From Octopus vulgaris (lineage: Eukaryota), in contig OX597837.1 in the NCBI GenBank assembly GCA_951406725.2, positions 12,028,001 to 12,092,000 on the forward strand: a DNA stretch of 64,000 nucleotides, in the 5' to 3' direction. Of the stretch, positions 12,200-52,283 are shown piece after piece. The notes under the pieces are model-generated. The model did no database searches, was not told the origin of the DNA, and was given only the letters and a program-made list of their open reading frames with translations. The first letter of the stretch is position 1. Each line of letters starts with the position of its first letter. The translations under genes and the position numbers were made by a program.

Positions 12200-12355
12200 C
12201 TAGTGATGTGTGCTGTGTGTATTGTCCGTCCTCGTGGAGAGAATGTGACCGGCGTTTAAGATTGAATTGATGTGCATCACGAGCACATGGTGGGCAGCAT
12301 GAGGGTCCTTTAGGGTGTTACCAAACATGGACATCGTCTGTAGCGCTATGTTGGC
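12200..12355 (-). CDS. PLAAT: Predicted terminal coding exon of the PLAAT-like gene (51 aa + stop)
   Basis: Strong acceptor ttttcattctttattttccAG followed in phase 0 by ANIALQTMSMFGNTLKDPHAAHH...STHH*. Splicing gives WSDQ|ANIAL, paralleling the SEQANRAI stretch of vertebrate PLAAT1 (recalled, not aligned). Non-repetitive sequence. Confidence 0.7.
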   Translation of the reverse strand, partial: ANIALQTMSMFGNTLKDPHAAHHVLVMHINSILNAGHILSTRTDNTHSTHH

Positions 12356-12403
12356 CTGGAAAATAAAGAATGAAAAGATTAATATATATATGTATATATA
12401 TAT

Positions 12404-12621
12404 AAAGTTAATCCAAACATGAAAACACAAAGAGAAAACACAACAACGCGAGGACGTGGAACAAATATAGTATTATTGGATGCCCAGGAAGGAAGGGGAA
12501 AAGGAGGGTTTAACGTTTCGAGCGGAGCTCTTCATCGGAAACATAGGAGAAGGAAAGATCCAGAGAAGGGAAGACAGAGGAAAAAAAATCGCCAACGGTA
12601 CACACGAGGTCACATTTTGAA
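12404..12621 (-). mobile_element. ~215 bp hammerhead-bearing non-autonomous element (family A) in (TA)n
   Basis: Reverse complement of 58299-58502 with matching termini, related to 59936-60133, flanked on both sides by (TA)n. Confidence 0.75.
12508..12542 (-). ncRNA. Minimal hammerhead motif, U4C variant (family A)
   Basis: GUUU-CCGAUGA-A-GAGC(ucc)GCUC-GAAA-CG-UU-AAAC; stems I and II are perfect, stem III is the palindrome AACGUU. Confidence 0.68.
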
Positions 12622-13492
12622 TATATATATATATATATGTGTGTGTGTGTATATGTATAGATATATGTATATATATATATGTATATTTTAAATTTTTGTA
12701 ATTATGAGTATAATAAAAATTGGGGTTCAGCAAAAAATTTGCTTCACCACATACTGAAATTTAGAAATAGCAGCCAAGACTAGCTATTTCTCAACCATAA
12801 GAAAATGTCCCAGACAACAATACTCAACAACTCATGTAAGCAAAAAGAAAAAATAATGAATTCACTCGGCTTAGATTAACTGTGGGCGCGTTTCAGAGTT
12901 AGACAGATATGAAAAATGCAAAAACCATATGTGTGTATATATGTATATATATATAGTGAGAAAGAGAAACAGAGAGAGAGAGCAAGAGAGAGAAAAAGAT
13001 AGGGGGTGAAATCAATACAGACATTTTGCATGTTATACATCAACATTTTAAGGTCCACTCAAAACAGACTATGGAACCTGGTGTGGGCCCCTGGACCTTG
13101 CCAGTTCCTGCCAAATTGTCCAACTCAGGTCAGCATGGAAAATGGATGCTAACCCTTTCGTTACCAACCCACTCGAAAAGGGTTCTGTCTCTAGTACAAT
13201 TTTTTGCAATTTACTTAATCATTGACATTTTATTGTTATATTAATTTTAATATTTCTATTTTATGTAAATTTCTAGATGGTGTAATTTATTTGTTCCTTT
13301 TGAATTGATAAAAGGTGGGTTTTTTTCTAAGTTATATATACATATATACATATTTATAATATTGTGTGAAATTTGATTTAGTTTTTCTAAATTGAATTTT
13401 TTTCCTTGTAAGTTTGGATTAATATTCCCTCAAATAATAATAATTATATATATATATATGTGTGTGTGTGTATACACACATACATACACAAT

Positions 13493-13782
13493 GGGCTTCT
13501 TTCAGTATCCATTTATCAAAACCACTCAGAAGGCTTTTCTTGGCCCAGGGCTATACTAGAAGACATTTGCCCAAGGTGTCCTGCAGTGGGACTGAGGCTG
13601 AAACCACATAATTGCAAAGCAAGCTTCTTAACCACGGAGCCAAGCTTGCAGGCTTCTTTTCAGTTTTCTTCTCCGAAAATGCACTCACAAGGCTTTGATT
13701 GGCCCCAAGGTGTCCTGCAATGAGAGTGAACCCAGAACCATGTGGCTGGTAAGGAAGCTACTTACCACACAGCCACTCCTAT
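13493..13782 (-). mobile_element. Two tandem SINE family 1 head fragments
   Basis: gggcttctttcag...cccaaggtg...ccacacagccactcct pattern, twice. Confidence 0.7.
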
Positions 13783-13864
13783 ATGTGTGTGTGTGTGTGT
13801 ATGTATGTTTAATTGATTATCATAAGTCAAAAGACCCATCTTATCCTAAACGCACTATCAGACG

Positions 13865-13895
<31 letters not shown>

Positions 13896-14810
13896 ATGCA
13901 TGTGTATGTGTGTGTCCGTATGTCTGTAGTATGGAGAAGGAGATGAACAGTAGAATAGTGAACGTAAACAAGTATAACGATAATAATGATAGGTACTTGT
14001 AAATCTTGTAAACACCCACAAAACCAATTTTCACACACGCATACACACACACACGTACACACACGCACACACAAACACTGCATTGCATATACTCAGACAC
14101 GATCTAATGGTCTCTTTAAATTACCAGAATAATGAGTGTGTGGTGGTGGTGATGGTGGTGATAGCGATGGTGGTAGTGGTGGTGTCGGTGATGGTGGTGG
14201 TGGTGGTGGTGTTGGTGGTGGTGGTGGTGGTGGTGATAATGATGGTGGTAGTGGTGGTGTTGGTGGTGGTGGTTGCGGTGCTGGTTGCGGTAGTAATAAT
14301 GCTCATTATAGCCACGGTGTTGATGATGACGCAGGTGGTGGTGGTGGGGATGGTAATTAAAGGTACGGGTAATTGGTGGTGGTGGTGGCAGTGACGACTG
14401 GGGGGTGGGGTTACTTGGCAGCTTTAACAGCAGTGGTGGCCACAGAGTAAAAAGAGAGAGAAAGAGAGAGAGAGAGAAGGGAAAAAAGAGTGAGTTTTGT
14501 CTACTACAATTATCCAAGGCCATGAATGAGAGCCGCTACCTCGGCCCCAACCATTCATCCCACCCCACATGAAGCTTTCCTCTCGCCCAGCCACCACCCC
14601 TGCCCTCTACGCTGCGTAATATCTCTGACTCAATCAGTGTCAGTCCTACCTGGTCAGTACAGGTGAGTCAACAGGTGAATGATGCTGGTGGTAACAGTGG
14701 TAGTGGTGGTGGTGGTGGTAGAAGTGGTATTGCTGTATTGGTGGTGGTAATGGTGTTGGTGTTGATGGTGGTGTTGGTGGTGGTGGTAGTGGTGTTGTTG
14801 TTATTGTTGT

Positions 14811-14841
<31 letters not shown>

Positions 14842-44961: not shown

Positions 44962-45371
44962 ATACACATACGCAAACCCGGAAAAGCTTTTTGCAACAGG
45001 CAAAAAAATAAAAATAAATAAATTAGTGGAATTTGAGCCGGTAAAGTGTATTGAATATGTTAAGGCAATTTGACTTCTCCCCAGACACAGCAAAATTTAT
45101 TTCTACACACGGATTCAAATAAGGAATCTTGCAAACCAGATAAAAACACAAAGTATATACACACACCCTTACATATACACACACGCCAAGTACATAGAAA
45201 AAAAAATGATGGGCCGGCCGGCTACCTGGGGAAAACAGTGCTGTGTAAATATGTGCAGCAAGTATTTGTGTGTTGGAATAAAACAATGGACATATTACTG
45301 AGACGAAGCGAAAGACGAGCGGAAGAGAAATGGAAAAATACATATTTATATATTAAATACACAACAGACAC

Positions 45372-45424
<53 letters not shown>

Positions 45425-45588
45425 GCCTGTCTGTCTGTCTGCCTGTCCGCGCCCGGCCACGTATATATAAATACGTGTTTGTGTATATAAATAAATATAT
45501 ATAGAAACATAAATACATAAAATGTTTTGTATCGGTATGTATGAAAGAAATACACCACACATACACATACACGGACATCAATATGTAT

Positions 45589-45660
<72 letters not shown>

Positions 45661-45664
<4 letters not shown>

Positions 45665-46006
45665 AAACAAGTAAAAAATAGAAAATGCTAAAATAATTTT
45701 ATAGTGAACATTTCAGTACCGGTTTCGGTCATTTTGAGACCTTTTCAACTGTAACGATTAAATAATTAAATTTAGAAAAATTAGAAGAAAAGTTTTTTAA
45801 AAGAATATTTCTATAGTAGTGTTCAGATTTAAGTGGCATTCTGCCTTTCTCTGACTCCCTTGTTTGCACTTGTGTGTTCGAGGTAGTTGTGAGTTCTTGG
45901 TAGGGTAGTAGAGGGAAGGCTGGTGAGGAAAGGGGGTGGGAGAATCTGGGAGTGCCCTGATGGTCGTATTTTGAATGGTCAGTGGCGGCTGGCAGTCTCA
46001 GTTCAA
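45661..46006 (-). mobile_element. Family E hammerhead-bearing element, longer copy, in (TA)n
   Basis: Same 3' end as 30263-30490, extends about 120 nt further 5'; (TA)n on both sides. Confidence 0.8.
45714..45751 (-). ncRNA. Minimal hammerhead motif, U3-A8 core variant (family E copy 2)
   Basis: 38-nt motif identical to 30317-30354. Confidence 0.7.
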
Positions 46007-46245
46007 TATATATATATATAAACACGCAATATTAAAAAGGTATTTGTAGGTGTATGTGTGTGTATGCGTGTGTGTGTGTGTGTGTGTGAGTGAGTGAGAG
46101 AGAGAGAGAGAGAATCAGAACTAGTAGAACGGTGACCAAAATATTTATGCCCTGAGTTCAAATCCTGCCGAGGTCAACTTGCTTTTTTTAATACTTTTAT
46201 GTGTTTTAATATCATCGACTGAACTCAAAGATTTGTACCCCTGAG

Positions 46246-46327
<82 letters not shown>

Positions 46328-46571
46328 GTAGATAGAGATAAGTAGATACGTGTATGTATGTATAGATTTTTATTATTTGTTATCGGCAGAAGTTACAAAG
46401 TGCTTTGAATACCGAGACTTTCGTATATAAAGAACGGCATTCCAATGATCAAACCTAAGAGTTTACACGCACACACACACACACGTAATGTATATTATTG
46501 ATTTGTATATATTTGATCATTAGCAATAATTATTTGATCATTTAATTAATGAATAATAATTAATAGCTTCA

Positions 46572-46772
46572 AATCTTGGCACAAGTCCAGGGGAGGAGGA
46601 ACAAAGTCAATCAGATTGATCGCCCAGTGTACAACTGGTACTTATTTTATCGACACCGAAAGGATGAGAAGGCTAAGTCGACCTCAGTGGAATTTGGACT
46701 CTGAACGTAAAGACGGACGAAATGCCGGTAAGCATTTTGTCCGGCGTGCTAACGATTCGGTCAAGCTCGCCG
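46572..46772 (-). mobile_element. SINE family 2
   Basis: Colinear with family 2. Confidence 0.78.
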
Positions 46773-47025
46773 CTTTAGCTTAATACATAAATAATATCGA
46801 TTTCTGAAATGAAAGGAGAAATCAAACTTAGGACCCAGGCGAGGTTTCGAACCCACAACACCAAGGGAGATAACTAAAAGACCACAAGGCTCATTGCATT
46901 CTCCGGACGCTCTACCGTTTCTGAAGGCCAGACCTACCCCCATCCACTCTCTTATATAATAACAATATAGTGTATATATATATATATTTATACTTTATTT
47001 AAAAGCAGCAGAAATATAACAAAAG

Positions 47026-47063
47026 CTGTTACTAGGAGTTTCGCGTTCCCGTTCGTCGGACAG
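47026..47063 (-). ncRNA. Hammerhead motif (family F, inverted copy)
   Basis: CUGU-CCGACGA-ACG(ggaa)CGC-GAAA-CUCCUAG-UA-ACAG; stem I CUGU/ACAG. Confidence 0.55.
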
Positions 47064-47107
47064 TTTTGTTAAAAAAAGAAAATTTATGTTTCTTTTTTTT
47101 AACAAAA

Positions 47108-47145
47108 CTGTCCGTCGAACGGGAACGTGAAACTCCGAGTAACAG
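47108..47145 (+). ncRNA. Hammerhead motif (family F, direct copy)
   Basis: CUGU-CCGUCGA-ACG(ggaa)CGU-GAAA-CUC(c)GAG-UA-ACAG; all three stems pair, but the core has A6U. Confidence 0.55.
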
Positions 47146-47247
47146 CTTTTGTTATATTTCTGCTGCTTTTAAATAAAGCATATTACTCTACCTCTGGTAT
47201 TTGAATACTCTTTTTTCCACCTTGTTACACATTTACGTGCTTATACC

Positions 47248-47283
<36 letters not shown>

Positions 47284-47315
47284 GGTGCACCTGAGCACTG
47301 TATACAATAATTTCA

Positions 47316-47361
<46 letters not shown>

Positions 47362-48101
47362 GGGTATATAAGCCGGGCATGGACAACCTTTTTCGAGAAG
47401 CGGGCCGCAAGCACCACAAAAACGATCAAGAAAATGAAAGAAAAAAAAAGGAAAAAAAAGGAGAAAAGAAAAGAAAACTAAAAAAAAAAAGTTGAAGGTT
47501 CATCATTATTGATTTTGTTGGTGTGCTGTCATTCAGAAAAGTCCCGCGGGCCGCACCGCAGTTTTTTTGGTCCGTGATGGGGTTAATAACTAAATGACAA
47601 CCTCGATGGAGATCATATGACGACGACGACGACGATGATGGTGATGATGGTGATGATGATGGTGGTTCTGGTGGTCATGTGACTGTGTCAAGGCCGTTGG
47701 ATGCTGACAGAACCAACCACAATAATTTTGAATGACGTTTATCGCTTTTGCACAAAGAGCAATTTTCCCTCGTTTTCATTTTTTAATATCTTTTTTTGTA
47801 ATTTGTAATTAAAACGAAAACGATAGCCAGTCGTTAATTACTGGTACTAAACAAATGACTGGTTTTTTTTTTAATTAAGCGTTAATTCTAGATAAAAAAA
47901 AGACCAAACAAAACAACAAAAAATCCACGTTTAATTTAATTGAATTTTAAATCTAACTTATTTAATTACATAATTCATTTCATTTATTTTTAACCGTAGA
48001 AAGAAAGACAAGATCAAAAAGTATTTTTAAAATGACTTGGTCACTTGGTTACTAGAAATGACAGTCAAATCCTTCCCTCAAATCACACCCTGCTATCTTT
48101 T

Positions 48102-48166
<65 letters not shown>

Positions 48167-48914
48167 TACATATATACACCATGGAAACTAAGAAATTAGA
48201 TCGTGGAAGAGTCGAAGTTGTCACTTAGAACCACAAGAAATAACAGCCAAATCTCCCTCAAATCACAGCTAAGAACTAGATAACAGTATAGTTGACTCGG
48301 TCGTTTAGAGACACTAGAAATAACAGAAGAGGAAAGGAAGGCAGGATGGTCACGGTCGGACTACGTCTAATCATAAGTCTGCTGGATTTGGGCTTACCCA
48401 GAGTTAGACATGTGAGAATGGTCAAGTGTTTTCGAAGAATGCTTTCCGAAAATAAGTTCACACACACACACACACCTATTTTTTTTTAAAGTTATGAGGG
48501 CTACGGTTAGGGTGCGGTGGAGGGTGAGTATGTACCATTGCGTACACCCTCACATACACACACACTGAGAAATGTATTTTTGAATCTTAGAGGCTTTCGA
48601 TCCCTATCTTCAGGGTCTCTCAGACACGGGGTGAGGGGGATAGATAAATTGATGAATGGATGGAAGACGTCCTCTGACCCTCCCCCTGAGAACCCTGTCC
48701 AAAATGTGACCAACATGGTGAAGAAATTTATACTGGAAAAAAAAAATAATAATAATTAAGATAATGATGCGTCGTCTTTCTCTCGTTAAATTATTTCCGC
48801 CTTCTCTGAATCGAAAATACAAAAATGGAACCTTTCCTAATTTTTTTTATTTCCTTTTTAACCCCCAAACCAAAATAAAAGTAATTTCTTAAGACAACAA
48901 TTACCCCCGTCACA

Positions 48915-48985
<71 letters not shown>

Positions 48986-49351
48986 ATATATATATATTAT
49001 ATATATATATGTGTATATATATGCATGTGTATGTATAAATATATATATTTAATACAAATAGGAAAATAAAAATGAAAACGTGATTAAATAATACTCACAT
49101 TTATAAATATTTATATACGTATATATATTTACATTTATTTTTGTATCTCTCTCTATATATATACATACACATATATATACATACACCTATATATATATAT
49201 ATTTTTATTTATTTATTTATTTATTTGTGCCCCAGCATGGCCACAGCCTAATGACTGAAACCAGCGTAAAGGTAAAAGATGTATGTATATAATTTATATT
49301 TGTATACACTCACACATACCTACGCACAATTTTATAGAAAAAGAATGGAAA

Positions 49352-49409
<58 letters not shown>

Positions 49410-49846
49410 GCCATAGATACAGTTTAGCAGCAGCAGTAATAGTAGAAGTAGTAGTAGTAGTAGTATCAGCAGCATTAGTATGTGCCAAGGTGTGCAGCAT
49501 CAATAAAGCAACTAATATTTACCAACATTGCAGCACAATTCTTGTGTTTGTGCGCGTGTGGGTGTGAGGGGCGGCAGCGGTGGCGGTGGTGATGTGGTGA
49601 TGGTGGTGGTGGGGGTGTTTGGCTGGTGGTCGTCGGTGTACGGACTAATGGTTGTTATATAAAAAGAACGAGAGAGTGAGGTGGGGTGGGTGGGTTTGTG
49701 GGTGGGTGGTTGGATGGTTGGGTGTGTGGGGTGTGTGGGGTGTGTGTGGGGGTTGGGGGAAGAGAGATTCTGAGAGAGAAAAAAAGGCTCAGCAAGAATT
49801 AGTTCAGTGGTGATGGAAAAATATAAATACACCTAGATTGATTACA

Positions 49847-50002
<156 letters not shown>

Positions 50003-50064
50003 ATAATATATATTATATATATATATATATATATTATAATTTATAAATAAATACCATTCCTATA

Positions 50065-50138
<74 letters not shown>

Positions 50139-50970
50139 TGTACGTATATAGGTAGGCAGGTAGGTTAAGTTGATATGCAAGTAGACATATAGGTGTAGAT
50201 AAGGAAAATGAGATATATATATATATAGAGAGAGAGAGAAGAGAGAGAGAAATATAGATAAACAGGTAAAAAAAGGAAGAGAGAAAATGTGTGTGTGTAT
50301 ATGTGTGTGTGTGTGTGAGAGAAGAGAGAGAGAGTGAGAGTGGGTGAACAAGTGTGTGAAAAAAGAGAGAGAGAGAGAAAGGAATGAAGATAGAATGTAA
50401 GAGATAGAAAGGAAAGGAAAGAGAGAGAGAGAGAGAGGGAGGGAGAAGAGATAGGAATTTTCCTTCAGAATATATTATATATTTTTTTGAACACAGGTAC
50501 AGAAGAACTGGATAAAAATCTCAGTGATCGATCGATCGATCGATTGACTGACTGATTGATTCATTCATTTATAATTAATTAAATGTTTTCCTAACAACAC
50601 CAACACAACAACAATCAATTCATTTTAATATTAATTAATACCACGGTGGAAGTTATTAACTAATAATCTCAGGAGGAACAGATTTTAACACAGGGTGTGT
50701 GTCGGGTGTGTCGGTACCCATACCCACGATTTTGTTTTGAAGGGGGGAAATGGAGATTAAAGACAAAAAAAAGGGGTTTTTTAAACCGTAAATCCCGTTG
50801 TTTGAAAGACAGGAAGAGGATACTTAAAAGAATGAAATAAGGGGGAAATAGGGGATAAGCAACAGAGGATATATTTTCATTAATATAATGAGTGTGTGCG
50901 TGTGCGTATACGAAAGTGTGTGTGTGTACAAACGTGTGTCATGTGCAGGTGTGTGTGTGTATATATATAC

Positions 50971-51042
<72 letters not shown>

Positions 51043-51129
51043 CATAATATACACATATATATAATATACATATATATATTATATATGTATATATATTAAA
51101 TATATAGATACATACACATACATACATAT

Positions 51130-51178
<49 letters not shown>

Positions 51179-51261
51179 GCACACATATATATATATACAC
51201 ACACATATATATATACACACACACACAGACATATATATATATATACATACATATATATGTA

Positions 51262-51303
<42 letters not shown>

Positions 51304-51338
51304 TTATATAACCTTGTGTGTGTGTGTATATATATATA

Positions 51339-51383
<45 letters not shown>

Positions 51384-51662
51384 GTAATGCGCAGTGCCAC
51401 TACGAAATTCTTCGCCGCCTGCGTTTGTTTTGCTTAAAAGGTTTCGTGTGAGAAACTTAATTTCTATCAAAGAACGACGGTGTAGTCCGTATAAAAGAGA
51501 TAAGAAGTAACTACTAATAATAAAAACAACAAAATGAAATAATTAAAAGTGGTTTTGGGGAACACGGGTAAAAAAAACAAAACAAACAATATATGTAATT
51601 TAGGGATCAGGAAAGTTTTATGGCAAAGGTCAAGTTTAGGGGGTTCAAAGATCAAGACTCAC

Positions 51663-52283
51663 CTGGTCACTCCAGCCAACTCCGTATCGCCATTCTGTTA
51701 CATAGTGTTCGACATTTCTGGTTAAGAAATTATAGGGTACAGACTGTCCGACAGAGATCAAACTCTTGGAGAGGATTTCTTCTAAAGGTAACGGTTCCAG
51801 GCCGCGCTCTTTGGCCGGCACCTCTTTGTTGTTAATCCGAACCAGGCAATCACCGGCCACCTCCTGCAGGTAACTGCGCCGGACGAACGATTCCGAGGAA
51901 GAGATTTCCGATTTCGGTCCCGACACGTGCACAATCTCGCCGTCCCCTACGTACAGGCCCCAGTGCGTGTAGATCGTGCGATCGATCTCGATTAGATCCC
52001 CCAGCTCCACGTCCTCCAGGTCGGACGGCCGACAGAAGCTCCGCAACCCGGTCAACATCCCGCTGGGGCTGCTCGGCGACGGGCACCCGCTCGGCACTCG
52101 AACCCGGTTCCGCGGTACTTCTTCCTTCATTATTATATGTTTGTTGTTGATATTGTGATTATTATTGTTCTTCTTGTTGTTGTTATTGTGATTGTTTGTT
52201 TTCGTTATTGTTGCGGGTGTTGTTGTTGTTGTGAGTTTGTTATTTTTTTCTTCAATTTTCTCCAAGAATGTTATGGGCTTCAT
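51663..52283 (-). CDS. PLAAT: PLAAT/HRASLS-family (LRAT domain) protein, coding exon 1 (aa 1-207)
   Basis: The ORF contains GDLIEIDRTIYTHWGLYVGDGEIVHV, VRINNK, PLPLEEI and PYNFLTRNVEHYVTEWRYGVGWSDQ, colinear with PLAAT/HRASLS motifs. It ends at a consensus donor CAG|GTGAGT (intron starts 51662, phase 0). The N-terminus is Asn/Thr low-complexity; the start could also be Met52. The symbol is family-level only. Confidence 0.92.

Follow-up and report, generated by a model that had tools for sequence, protein, structure and literature searches.

A PLAAT-fold protein of Octopus vulgaris with valine at the nucleophile site: a probable pseudo-enzyme from a protostome group that may have lost its catalytic cysteine repeatedly

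The stretch of Octopus vulgaris DNA analysed here (64,000 nucleotides, hereafter the window, with no N anywhere in it) carries on its minus strand a two-exon gene with a product of 258 amino acids. The parts of the gene, with residues counted from the ATG at 52283, are as follows.

51663..52283, minus strand: coding exon 1 (from the sequence and spliced contigs), a low-complexity N-terminal extension, a Pro/Ser linker and the whole LRAT/PLAAT domain, residues 1–207
12356..51662, minus strand: phase-0 GT-AG intron of 39,307 bases; loose ends of the X3, X7 and X11 contigs match exon 2
12200..12355, minus strand: coding exon 2, 51 residues and the stop, a predicted helical hairpin (206–221, 225–246) without a transmembrane segment
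52128..52130, minus strand: second in-frame ATG, Met52 (MKEEV), the start in most database homologs
51963..51965, minus strand: His107, equivalent of PLAAT3 His23 (general base)
51927..51929, minus strand: His119, equivalent of PLAAT3 His35
51846..51848, minus strand: Cys146, in the loop before strand 147–150, not a conserved Cys
51804..51833, minus strand: group signature NNKEVPAKER, residues 151–160, with a predicted short helix at 154–159
51711..51713, minus strand: GTC, Val191, at the nucleophile position and the first residue of predicted helix 191–200

The minus-strand frame 52307–51645 contains the motif RNVEHYV and matches Pfam LRAT (PF04970) at 87 bits (cut-off 24.3, profile positions 2–118 of 120); the gene is intact, as the earlier note on this DNA had said of its reading frame. 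We rejected a single-exon, 212-residue protein ending in VSLDL: the stop after DQVSLDL is intron read-through past the GT donor at 51663. RNA contigs X3, X7 and X11, each from a different study, break at 51662 and then continue into the letters of exon 2, and so represent spliced transcripts. Compared by eye, the joined exons equal the database record P0245 (CAI9739904.1, Octopus vulgaris), and a 255-residue O. bimaculoides record is nearly identical to them. The choice of translation start between the ATGs at 52283 and 52130 is uncertain: 15 of 17 cephalopod-type database homologs begin with MKEE at the latter, which makes the nucleophile-site residue Val140, and the 51-residue Asn/Thr-rich extension that follows the former is part of the two Octopus records that are named. 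This upstream stretch (52131–52283, minus strand), an in-frame ATG plus 51 Asn/Thr-rich codons, lies inside the transcript and is either coding or 5′ UTR; three RNA contigs differ there by K37N and X18 by a 3-base deletion that preserves the frame. Elsewhere in the group of homologs described below, 39 of 95 aligned rows have Val as the residue following WSDQ and differ beyond it, a pattern that reading through a GT donor would give, suggesting that the phase-0 intron position is common to the group. The intron itself contains a long open frame (43523–44300, plus strand) without a Pfam match at E 0.01, which we take to resemble the end of a LINE reverse transcriptase.

The GTC codon recurs in both DNA and RNA contigs. 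Nineteen of the 24 sequencing runs listed contain half or more of the query words; of eight that were aligned to the window, X19 and X21 gave no contig here, which says nothing either way. GTC stands at codon 51713–51711 in the window, in all three spliced contigs (X3, X7 and X11, with no alternative letter at the codon), in the unspliced contig X18 and in DNA run X2, although X2 may be the source of the assembly DNA itself. The valine reported in the earlier note is therefore present in transcripts, not TGC, and the note was also right that His107 and His119 are kept, as both align with the two histidines of PLAAT3. RNA editing was rejected too. Rare variants are lost from contigs, and editing at a low level could thus escape, but no Cys codon can arise from GTC by A-to-I changes. 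The valine is fixed among cephalopod homologs as well, with NVEHY in all 17 database homologs of this type, including that of Acanthosepion pharaonis.

The domain is under strong purifying selection. We estimated this from a diverged relative in run X20, represented by one contig of depth 4.95 that spans 51757–52140, a span without the Val codon. The contig differs from the window gene at 39 positions, of which 33 were listed and 32 counted in whole codons; 29 of these are synonymous and 3 non-synonymous (dS 0.51, dN 0.013, dN/dS 0.025), and within the core alone the counts are 21 and 0. The Octopus record and the diverged homolog P0247 agree at 120 of 130 core positions and at 38 of 39 positions of the tail helices, against 14 of 23 in the linker. 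An assembly error or decaying pseudogene has nothing in its favour beyond the absent cysteine, and its probability is negligible, given that DNA contigs and the RNA contigs of three studies agree on the codon, that every cephalopod-type homolog has valine, that splicing is correct and that dN/dS is this low.

The predicted structure places the protein within the PLAAT (HRASLS) family. A model of residues 52–207 (pLDDT 88.6) aligns with PLAAT3 at Z 16.4 and rmsd 1.9 over 103 residues. The nine matches among solved structures are all human PLAAT2, PLAAT3 or PLAAT4 constructs, with the NCEHF cysteine aligned to Val191, and identity to human PLAAT3 and PLAAT4 is 42–43% over the structurally aligned part. 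The protein shares with PLAAT1–5 the LRAT domain and with the PLAAT enzymes the predicted circularly permuted NlpC/P60 fold, both histidines, the NxEH helix motif and the SDQ end. It differs from them in having NVEHY in place of NCEHF, in a helix that is four residues longer after NN, and in its tail. In the full-length model (mean pLDDT 77.6, with low confidence for the first 70 residues), Val191 opens helix 191–200, the signature lies in helix 154–159 and the tail forms helices 206–221 and 225–246 at pLDDT near 80. According to passages of PMC4624172, PLAAT1–4 have a C-terminal transmembrane segment that PLAAT5 lacks. The octopus tail reaches a hydropathy maximum of 0.94, and the 47 spliced group tails all stay at or below 1.31, whereas 9 of 12 vertebrate tails reach 1.79 or more; the tail is thus predicted to be a soluble helical hairpin rather than the membrane anchor of PLAAT1–4.

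The same passages describe the PLAAT cysteine as the nucleophile that forms an acyl thioester, and a thioester-forming cysteine in LRAT, the vertebrate retinol acyltransferase, at the position where the octopus protein has valine (PMC4624172). The octopus protein is not a PLAAT enzyme in the functional sense.

To place this substitution among relatives, we combined two homolog searches into 123 proteins including the query and dropped 11 (nine without a triad site and two multi-domain), leaving 112 rows; trees were built on 121 columns with the three triad columns excluded. Eighty-nine of the 112 rows carry an NNKxVxAKxR-type segment and score highest. Named members of this group are molluscs, a nemertean, tardigrades and chelicerates. 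Their nucleophile column contains S in 32 rows, C in 24, A in 18, V in 7, G in 4 and N, Y, F and T in one each; the full H-H/N/D-C triad is intact in 21 of the 89 rows, and 14 have H-H-S. By comparison, single-domain PLAAT matches outside the group have cysteine in 61 of 62 cases, a control gathered by profile score that may favour Cys-bearing matches. Named members have the following states, given as first His, second His and nucleophile where all three are listed.

Intact triad: Tubulanus, Paramacrobiotus, Ramazzottius, Hypsibius, Nymphon, Limulus, Tachypleus, Dinothrombium, Leptotrombidium
Cys retained, both His lost (D-T-C): Centruroides
Cys lost, V: cephalopods
Cys lost: Patella D-H-Y; Lottia D-H-F; Mytilus E-L-S
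Cys lost, S: Haliotis, Batillaria, Babylonia, Gigantopelta
Cys lost, G: Littorina
Cys lost: spiders mostly D-H-S; ticks S or G
Cys lost, A: Varroa, Tropilaelaps, Galendromus
Cys lost: Medioppia H-D-V; Tyrophagus T; Dermatophagoides Q-V-T

When the 120 core columns of the 95-row alignment are ordered by conservation, the nucleophile column comes 86th, and D96, W108, R149, N151, E192, T196, W204 and S205 are invariant (E192 and T196 in 95 of 95 rows). D96, W108, N151, N152, E192 and S205–Q207 are also kept in active PLAATs and may therefore be purely structural. Among 100 rows, near-duplicates included, 25 of the 76 without Cys have also lost the first His, compared with 2 of the 24 with Cys, as would be expected of a triad that decays when catalysis no longer matters; this His is replaced by Asp, Glu, Gln or Lys in 27 of the 100. 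A search of the ESM Atlas returned LRAT-family clusters only. Tandem-repeat PLAAT proteins with 2–11 domains (P0124–P0198) have cysteine in only 83 of 133 full domains, the other 50 having mostly Ser, which indicates that loss of the cysteine is not rare in the PLAAT fold as such.

How often the cysteine was lost within the group depends on the rows considered. The outgroup and several named members have cysteine, pointing to an active ancestor. The distinction between Cys and not-Cys requires 10 changes on the careful tree, where shuffling gives a mean of 21.2 and a minimum of 17; it requires 9 on 93 rows under a mixture model and 3 on the 39 named rows under a mixture model. In the careful tree the 89 group rows form one side in 52% of bootstrap trees, and seven outside invertebrate rows share an open fork with them, such that the group boundary is loose. 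Three losses are to be taken as a floor, with perhaps up to ten. We lean towards an ancient PLAAT orthogroup of protostomes that already had a non-catalytic job before molluscs and chelicerates split. Catalysis would then have been shed independently on at least three and perhaps as many as ten occasions, with the fold, signature helix and helical tail under strong selection throughout.

The alternative history, in which the cysteine was lost once in an ancient duplicate and the patchiness reflects hidden paralogy or Ser-to-Cys reversion, seems rather improbable. In its favour, a single base separates Cys from Ser codons, 121 columns leave many deep forks open, and the 39-row named subset does not reject one clade of all Cys-less rows (p-AU 0.127). 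The same constraint is rejected on 112 rows under LG+G4 (p-AU 0.00014) and on 93 rows under the mixture model (p-AU 2.6e-05). Chelicerate rows also cluster regardless of site state (SH-aLRT 93), well-supported sister pairs differ at the site (P0016 HHC with P0056 HHA; P0028 HTC with P0024 HDV), and His-to-Asp replacement recurs in limpets, spiders, scorpions and unnamed rows. Hidden paralogy is thus a live but weaker rival to repeated loss.

As to function, the octopus protein is probably a conserved pseudo-enzyme that serves as a non-catalytic binding (adaptor) protein and not as a phospholipase or acyltransferase. Its predicted fold is that of a normal PLAAT, with valine at the helix start where the thiol would sit. 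By established chemistry, no acyl thioester could form without that thiol, so phospholipase A activity and O-acyl and N-acyl transfer would be lost; the absence of this canonical lipid chemistry is very likely. The pattern of conservation suggests that an active-enzyme ancestor gained a second role, carried by the fold and by a group-specific surface comprising the N-terminal LxxF strand, D101–R102, the NNKxVxAKxR helix, W204-SDQ and the tail hairpin. With selection maintaining the second role, nothing would have held the cysteine in place, and it would have drifted in molluscs and, independently, in several chelicerate lines, often with loss of the first His afterwards. The fold appears to offer catalysis-independent interactions on which to build: passages of PMC4575093 report that C113S and H23L abolish the phospholipase A activity of H-rev107 and that these inactive mutants still bind partners. 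The adaptor reading is favoured by the many rows in which the substitute is bulky or cannot act as a nucleophile (V, A, G, F, Y, N), and the binding role would more probably be carried by the conserved surface than by the pocket, with a protein as the most likely partner. Against it, cephalopods keep both histidines and the whole pocket under constraint, which lipid binding would also fit.

That last observation leads to a somewhat unlikely but credible alternative, in which the catalytically dead protein still uses the old substrate pocket to bind or shield a phospholipid or acylated ligand; it could be a sensor, a carrier or a trap for substrate, and might damp an active paralog. This alternative accords with the retention in cephalopods of N190, E192 and H193 beside the two histidines, with the lack of non-synonymous changes among the 21 in the core, and with the predominance of small substitutes (S, A and G) that would leave the pocket open; competition of FAM84B with HRASLS enzymes has moreover been suggested in passages of PMC7140883. 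Yet the pocket chemistry is not constant across the group, with Tyr or Phe in limpets, Val in cephalopods and the first His replaced in more than a quarter of rows, and the membrane anchor is absent. It is far less likely that the group remains enzymatic by another route, with the Ser members acting as serine hydrolases and the Val protein through Cys146, Ser137 or a His-activated water. The H-H-S rows would fit such a route, as would the Ser or Cys found among 71 Cys-less rows at column 146 (57 rows) and at column 137 (51 rows). Against this, exchange of Cys for Ser kills H-rev107 activity (PMC4575093, passages), many Ser rows are without one or both histidines, and column 146 is Ser or Cys equally often where the true cysteine is present (21 of 24 rows). 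Cys146, which the earlier note had named as a possible alternative nucleophile, is unconvincing in that role: no more than 15 of 95 group rows have Cys at this position, and active human PLAAT4 has a cysteine there alongside its NCEHF cysteine. That note's broader proposal of a non-catalytic PLAAT lineage holds up as the best reading, since the codon is real, spliced into transcripts, fixed in cephalopods and set in a gene under purifying selection; its scope was understated, valine being one of at least eight substitutes in a protostome-wide pattern.

Other members of the wider fold family offer precedents for loss of catalysis. The vertebrate LRATD1 and LRATD2 proteins (FAM84A and FAM84B) have the LRAT domain and both histidines, lack the cysteine and are thought to be non-catalytic, as in the octopus protein (passages of PMC6535720 and PMC7140883); FAM84B in particular is described in part of PMC6535720 as keeping both histidines without the cysteine and as thought inactive. 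The homolog searches brought up no protein under the name FAM84 or LRATD, and the trees contain none; by description, the octopus group differs from LRATD/FAM84 in its eight different substitutes and frequent His loss. Cys-bearing members lie inside the octopus gene's group, so the loss probably took place within it and separately from that in LRATD/FAM84; the octopus protein probably works like these vertebrate proteins but arose separately. The picornavirus 2A H-box/NC proteins of parechovirus and Aichivirus are PLAAT-derived and described as unable to catalyse in passages of bioRxiv 10.1101/2024.04.06.588386, and Aichivirus 2A aligns to the octopus model at Z 9.7. By that account 2A keeps the cysteine and is inactive by topological rearrangement, whereas the octopus protein keeps the topology, according to its model, and loses the residue.

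A wide fold search, which covered mostly residues 79–203 and barely included the tail hairpin, gave as its second-best match the Euglena complex I accessory subunit NDUEG7 (PDB 8iuf chain E7; Z 14.4, rmsd 2.7, 129 residues; Z 14.3–14.4 across two fold searches). NDUEG7 is described in part of PMC10884005 as a structural wedge in the supercomplex, and would be a precedent for the PLAAT fold as a scaffold, but it is 19% identical, membrane-anchored and from an unrelated lineage. The words 'LRAT' and 'acyltransferase' are absent from the main text of that paper, and NDUEG7 is possibly an unrecognised PLAAT-fold scaffold.

Pseudo-enzymes are common and Cys-less PLAAT relatives are already known; the noteworthy part may be the repeated loss of the cysteine across protostomes, of which a prior mention is possible. 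Passages of a review note numerous uncharacterised invertebrate HRASLS-like genes (PMC5133064), the octopus gene's group is not mentioned in passages of a classification of papain-like proteins (PMC10318531), and a literature search by title and start of abstract, with most subscription journals and supplements outside its scope, found no description of this protostome group. Lipid signalling, the breakdown of organelles and the entry of viruses all involve PLAAT enzymes; no mechanism is known for FAM84A/B. The pairing of intact and dead active sites across about 25 named genera makes a non-catalytic function of the fold testable. If repeated loss is correct, living species span the whole course, from an intact triad through loss of His first or of Cys first to loss of both. 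They would then form a natural series from enzyme to pseudo-enzyme and a route to what the PLAAT fold does without catalysis. The octopus, cuttlefish, abalone, mussel, spider, tick, Varroa and dust-mite proteins of this group are probably misnamed by database labels of the kind 'phospholipase A and acyltransferase-like'.

Finally, the genome contains at least three LRAT-domain matches: the window gene and two intronless-looking H-H-C copies on contig C26, which are 28% identical to the window gene's domain. The C26 copies (L002:1438–1893 and L003:1447–1902) lie about 24 kb apart in opposite orientation and are 97.6% identical over 3.3 kb, either a recent inverted duplication or an assembly haplotype. 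Their H-H-C sites suggest that a putatively active family member remains in the genome.
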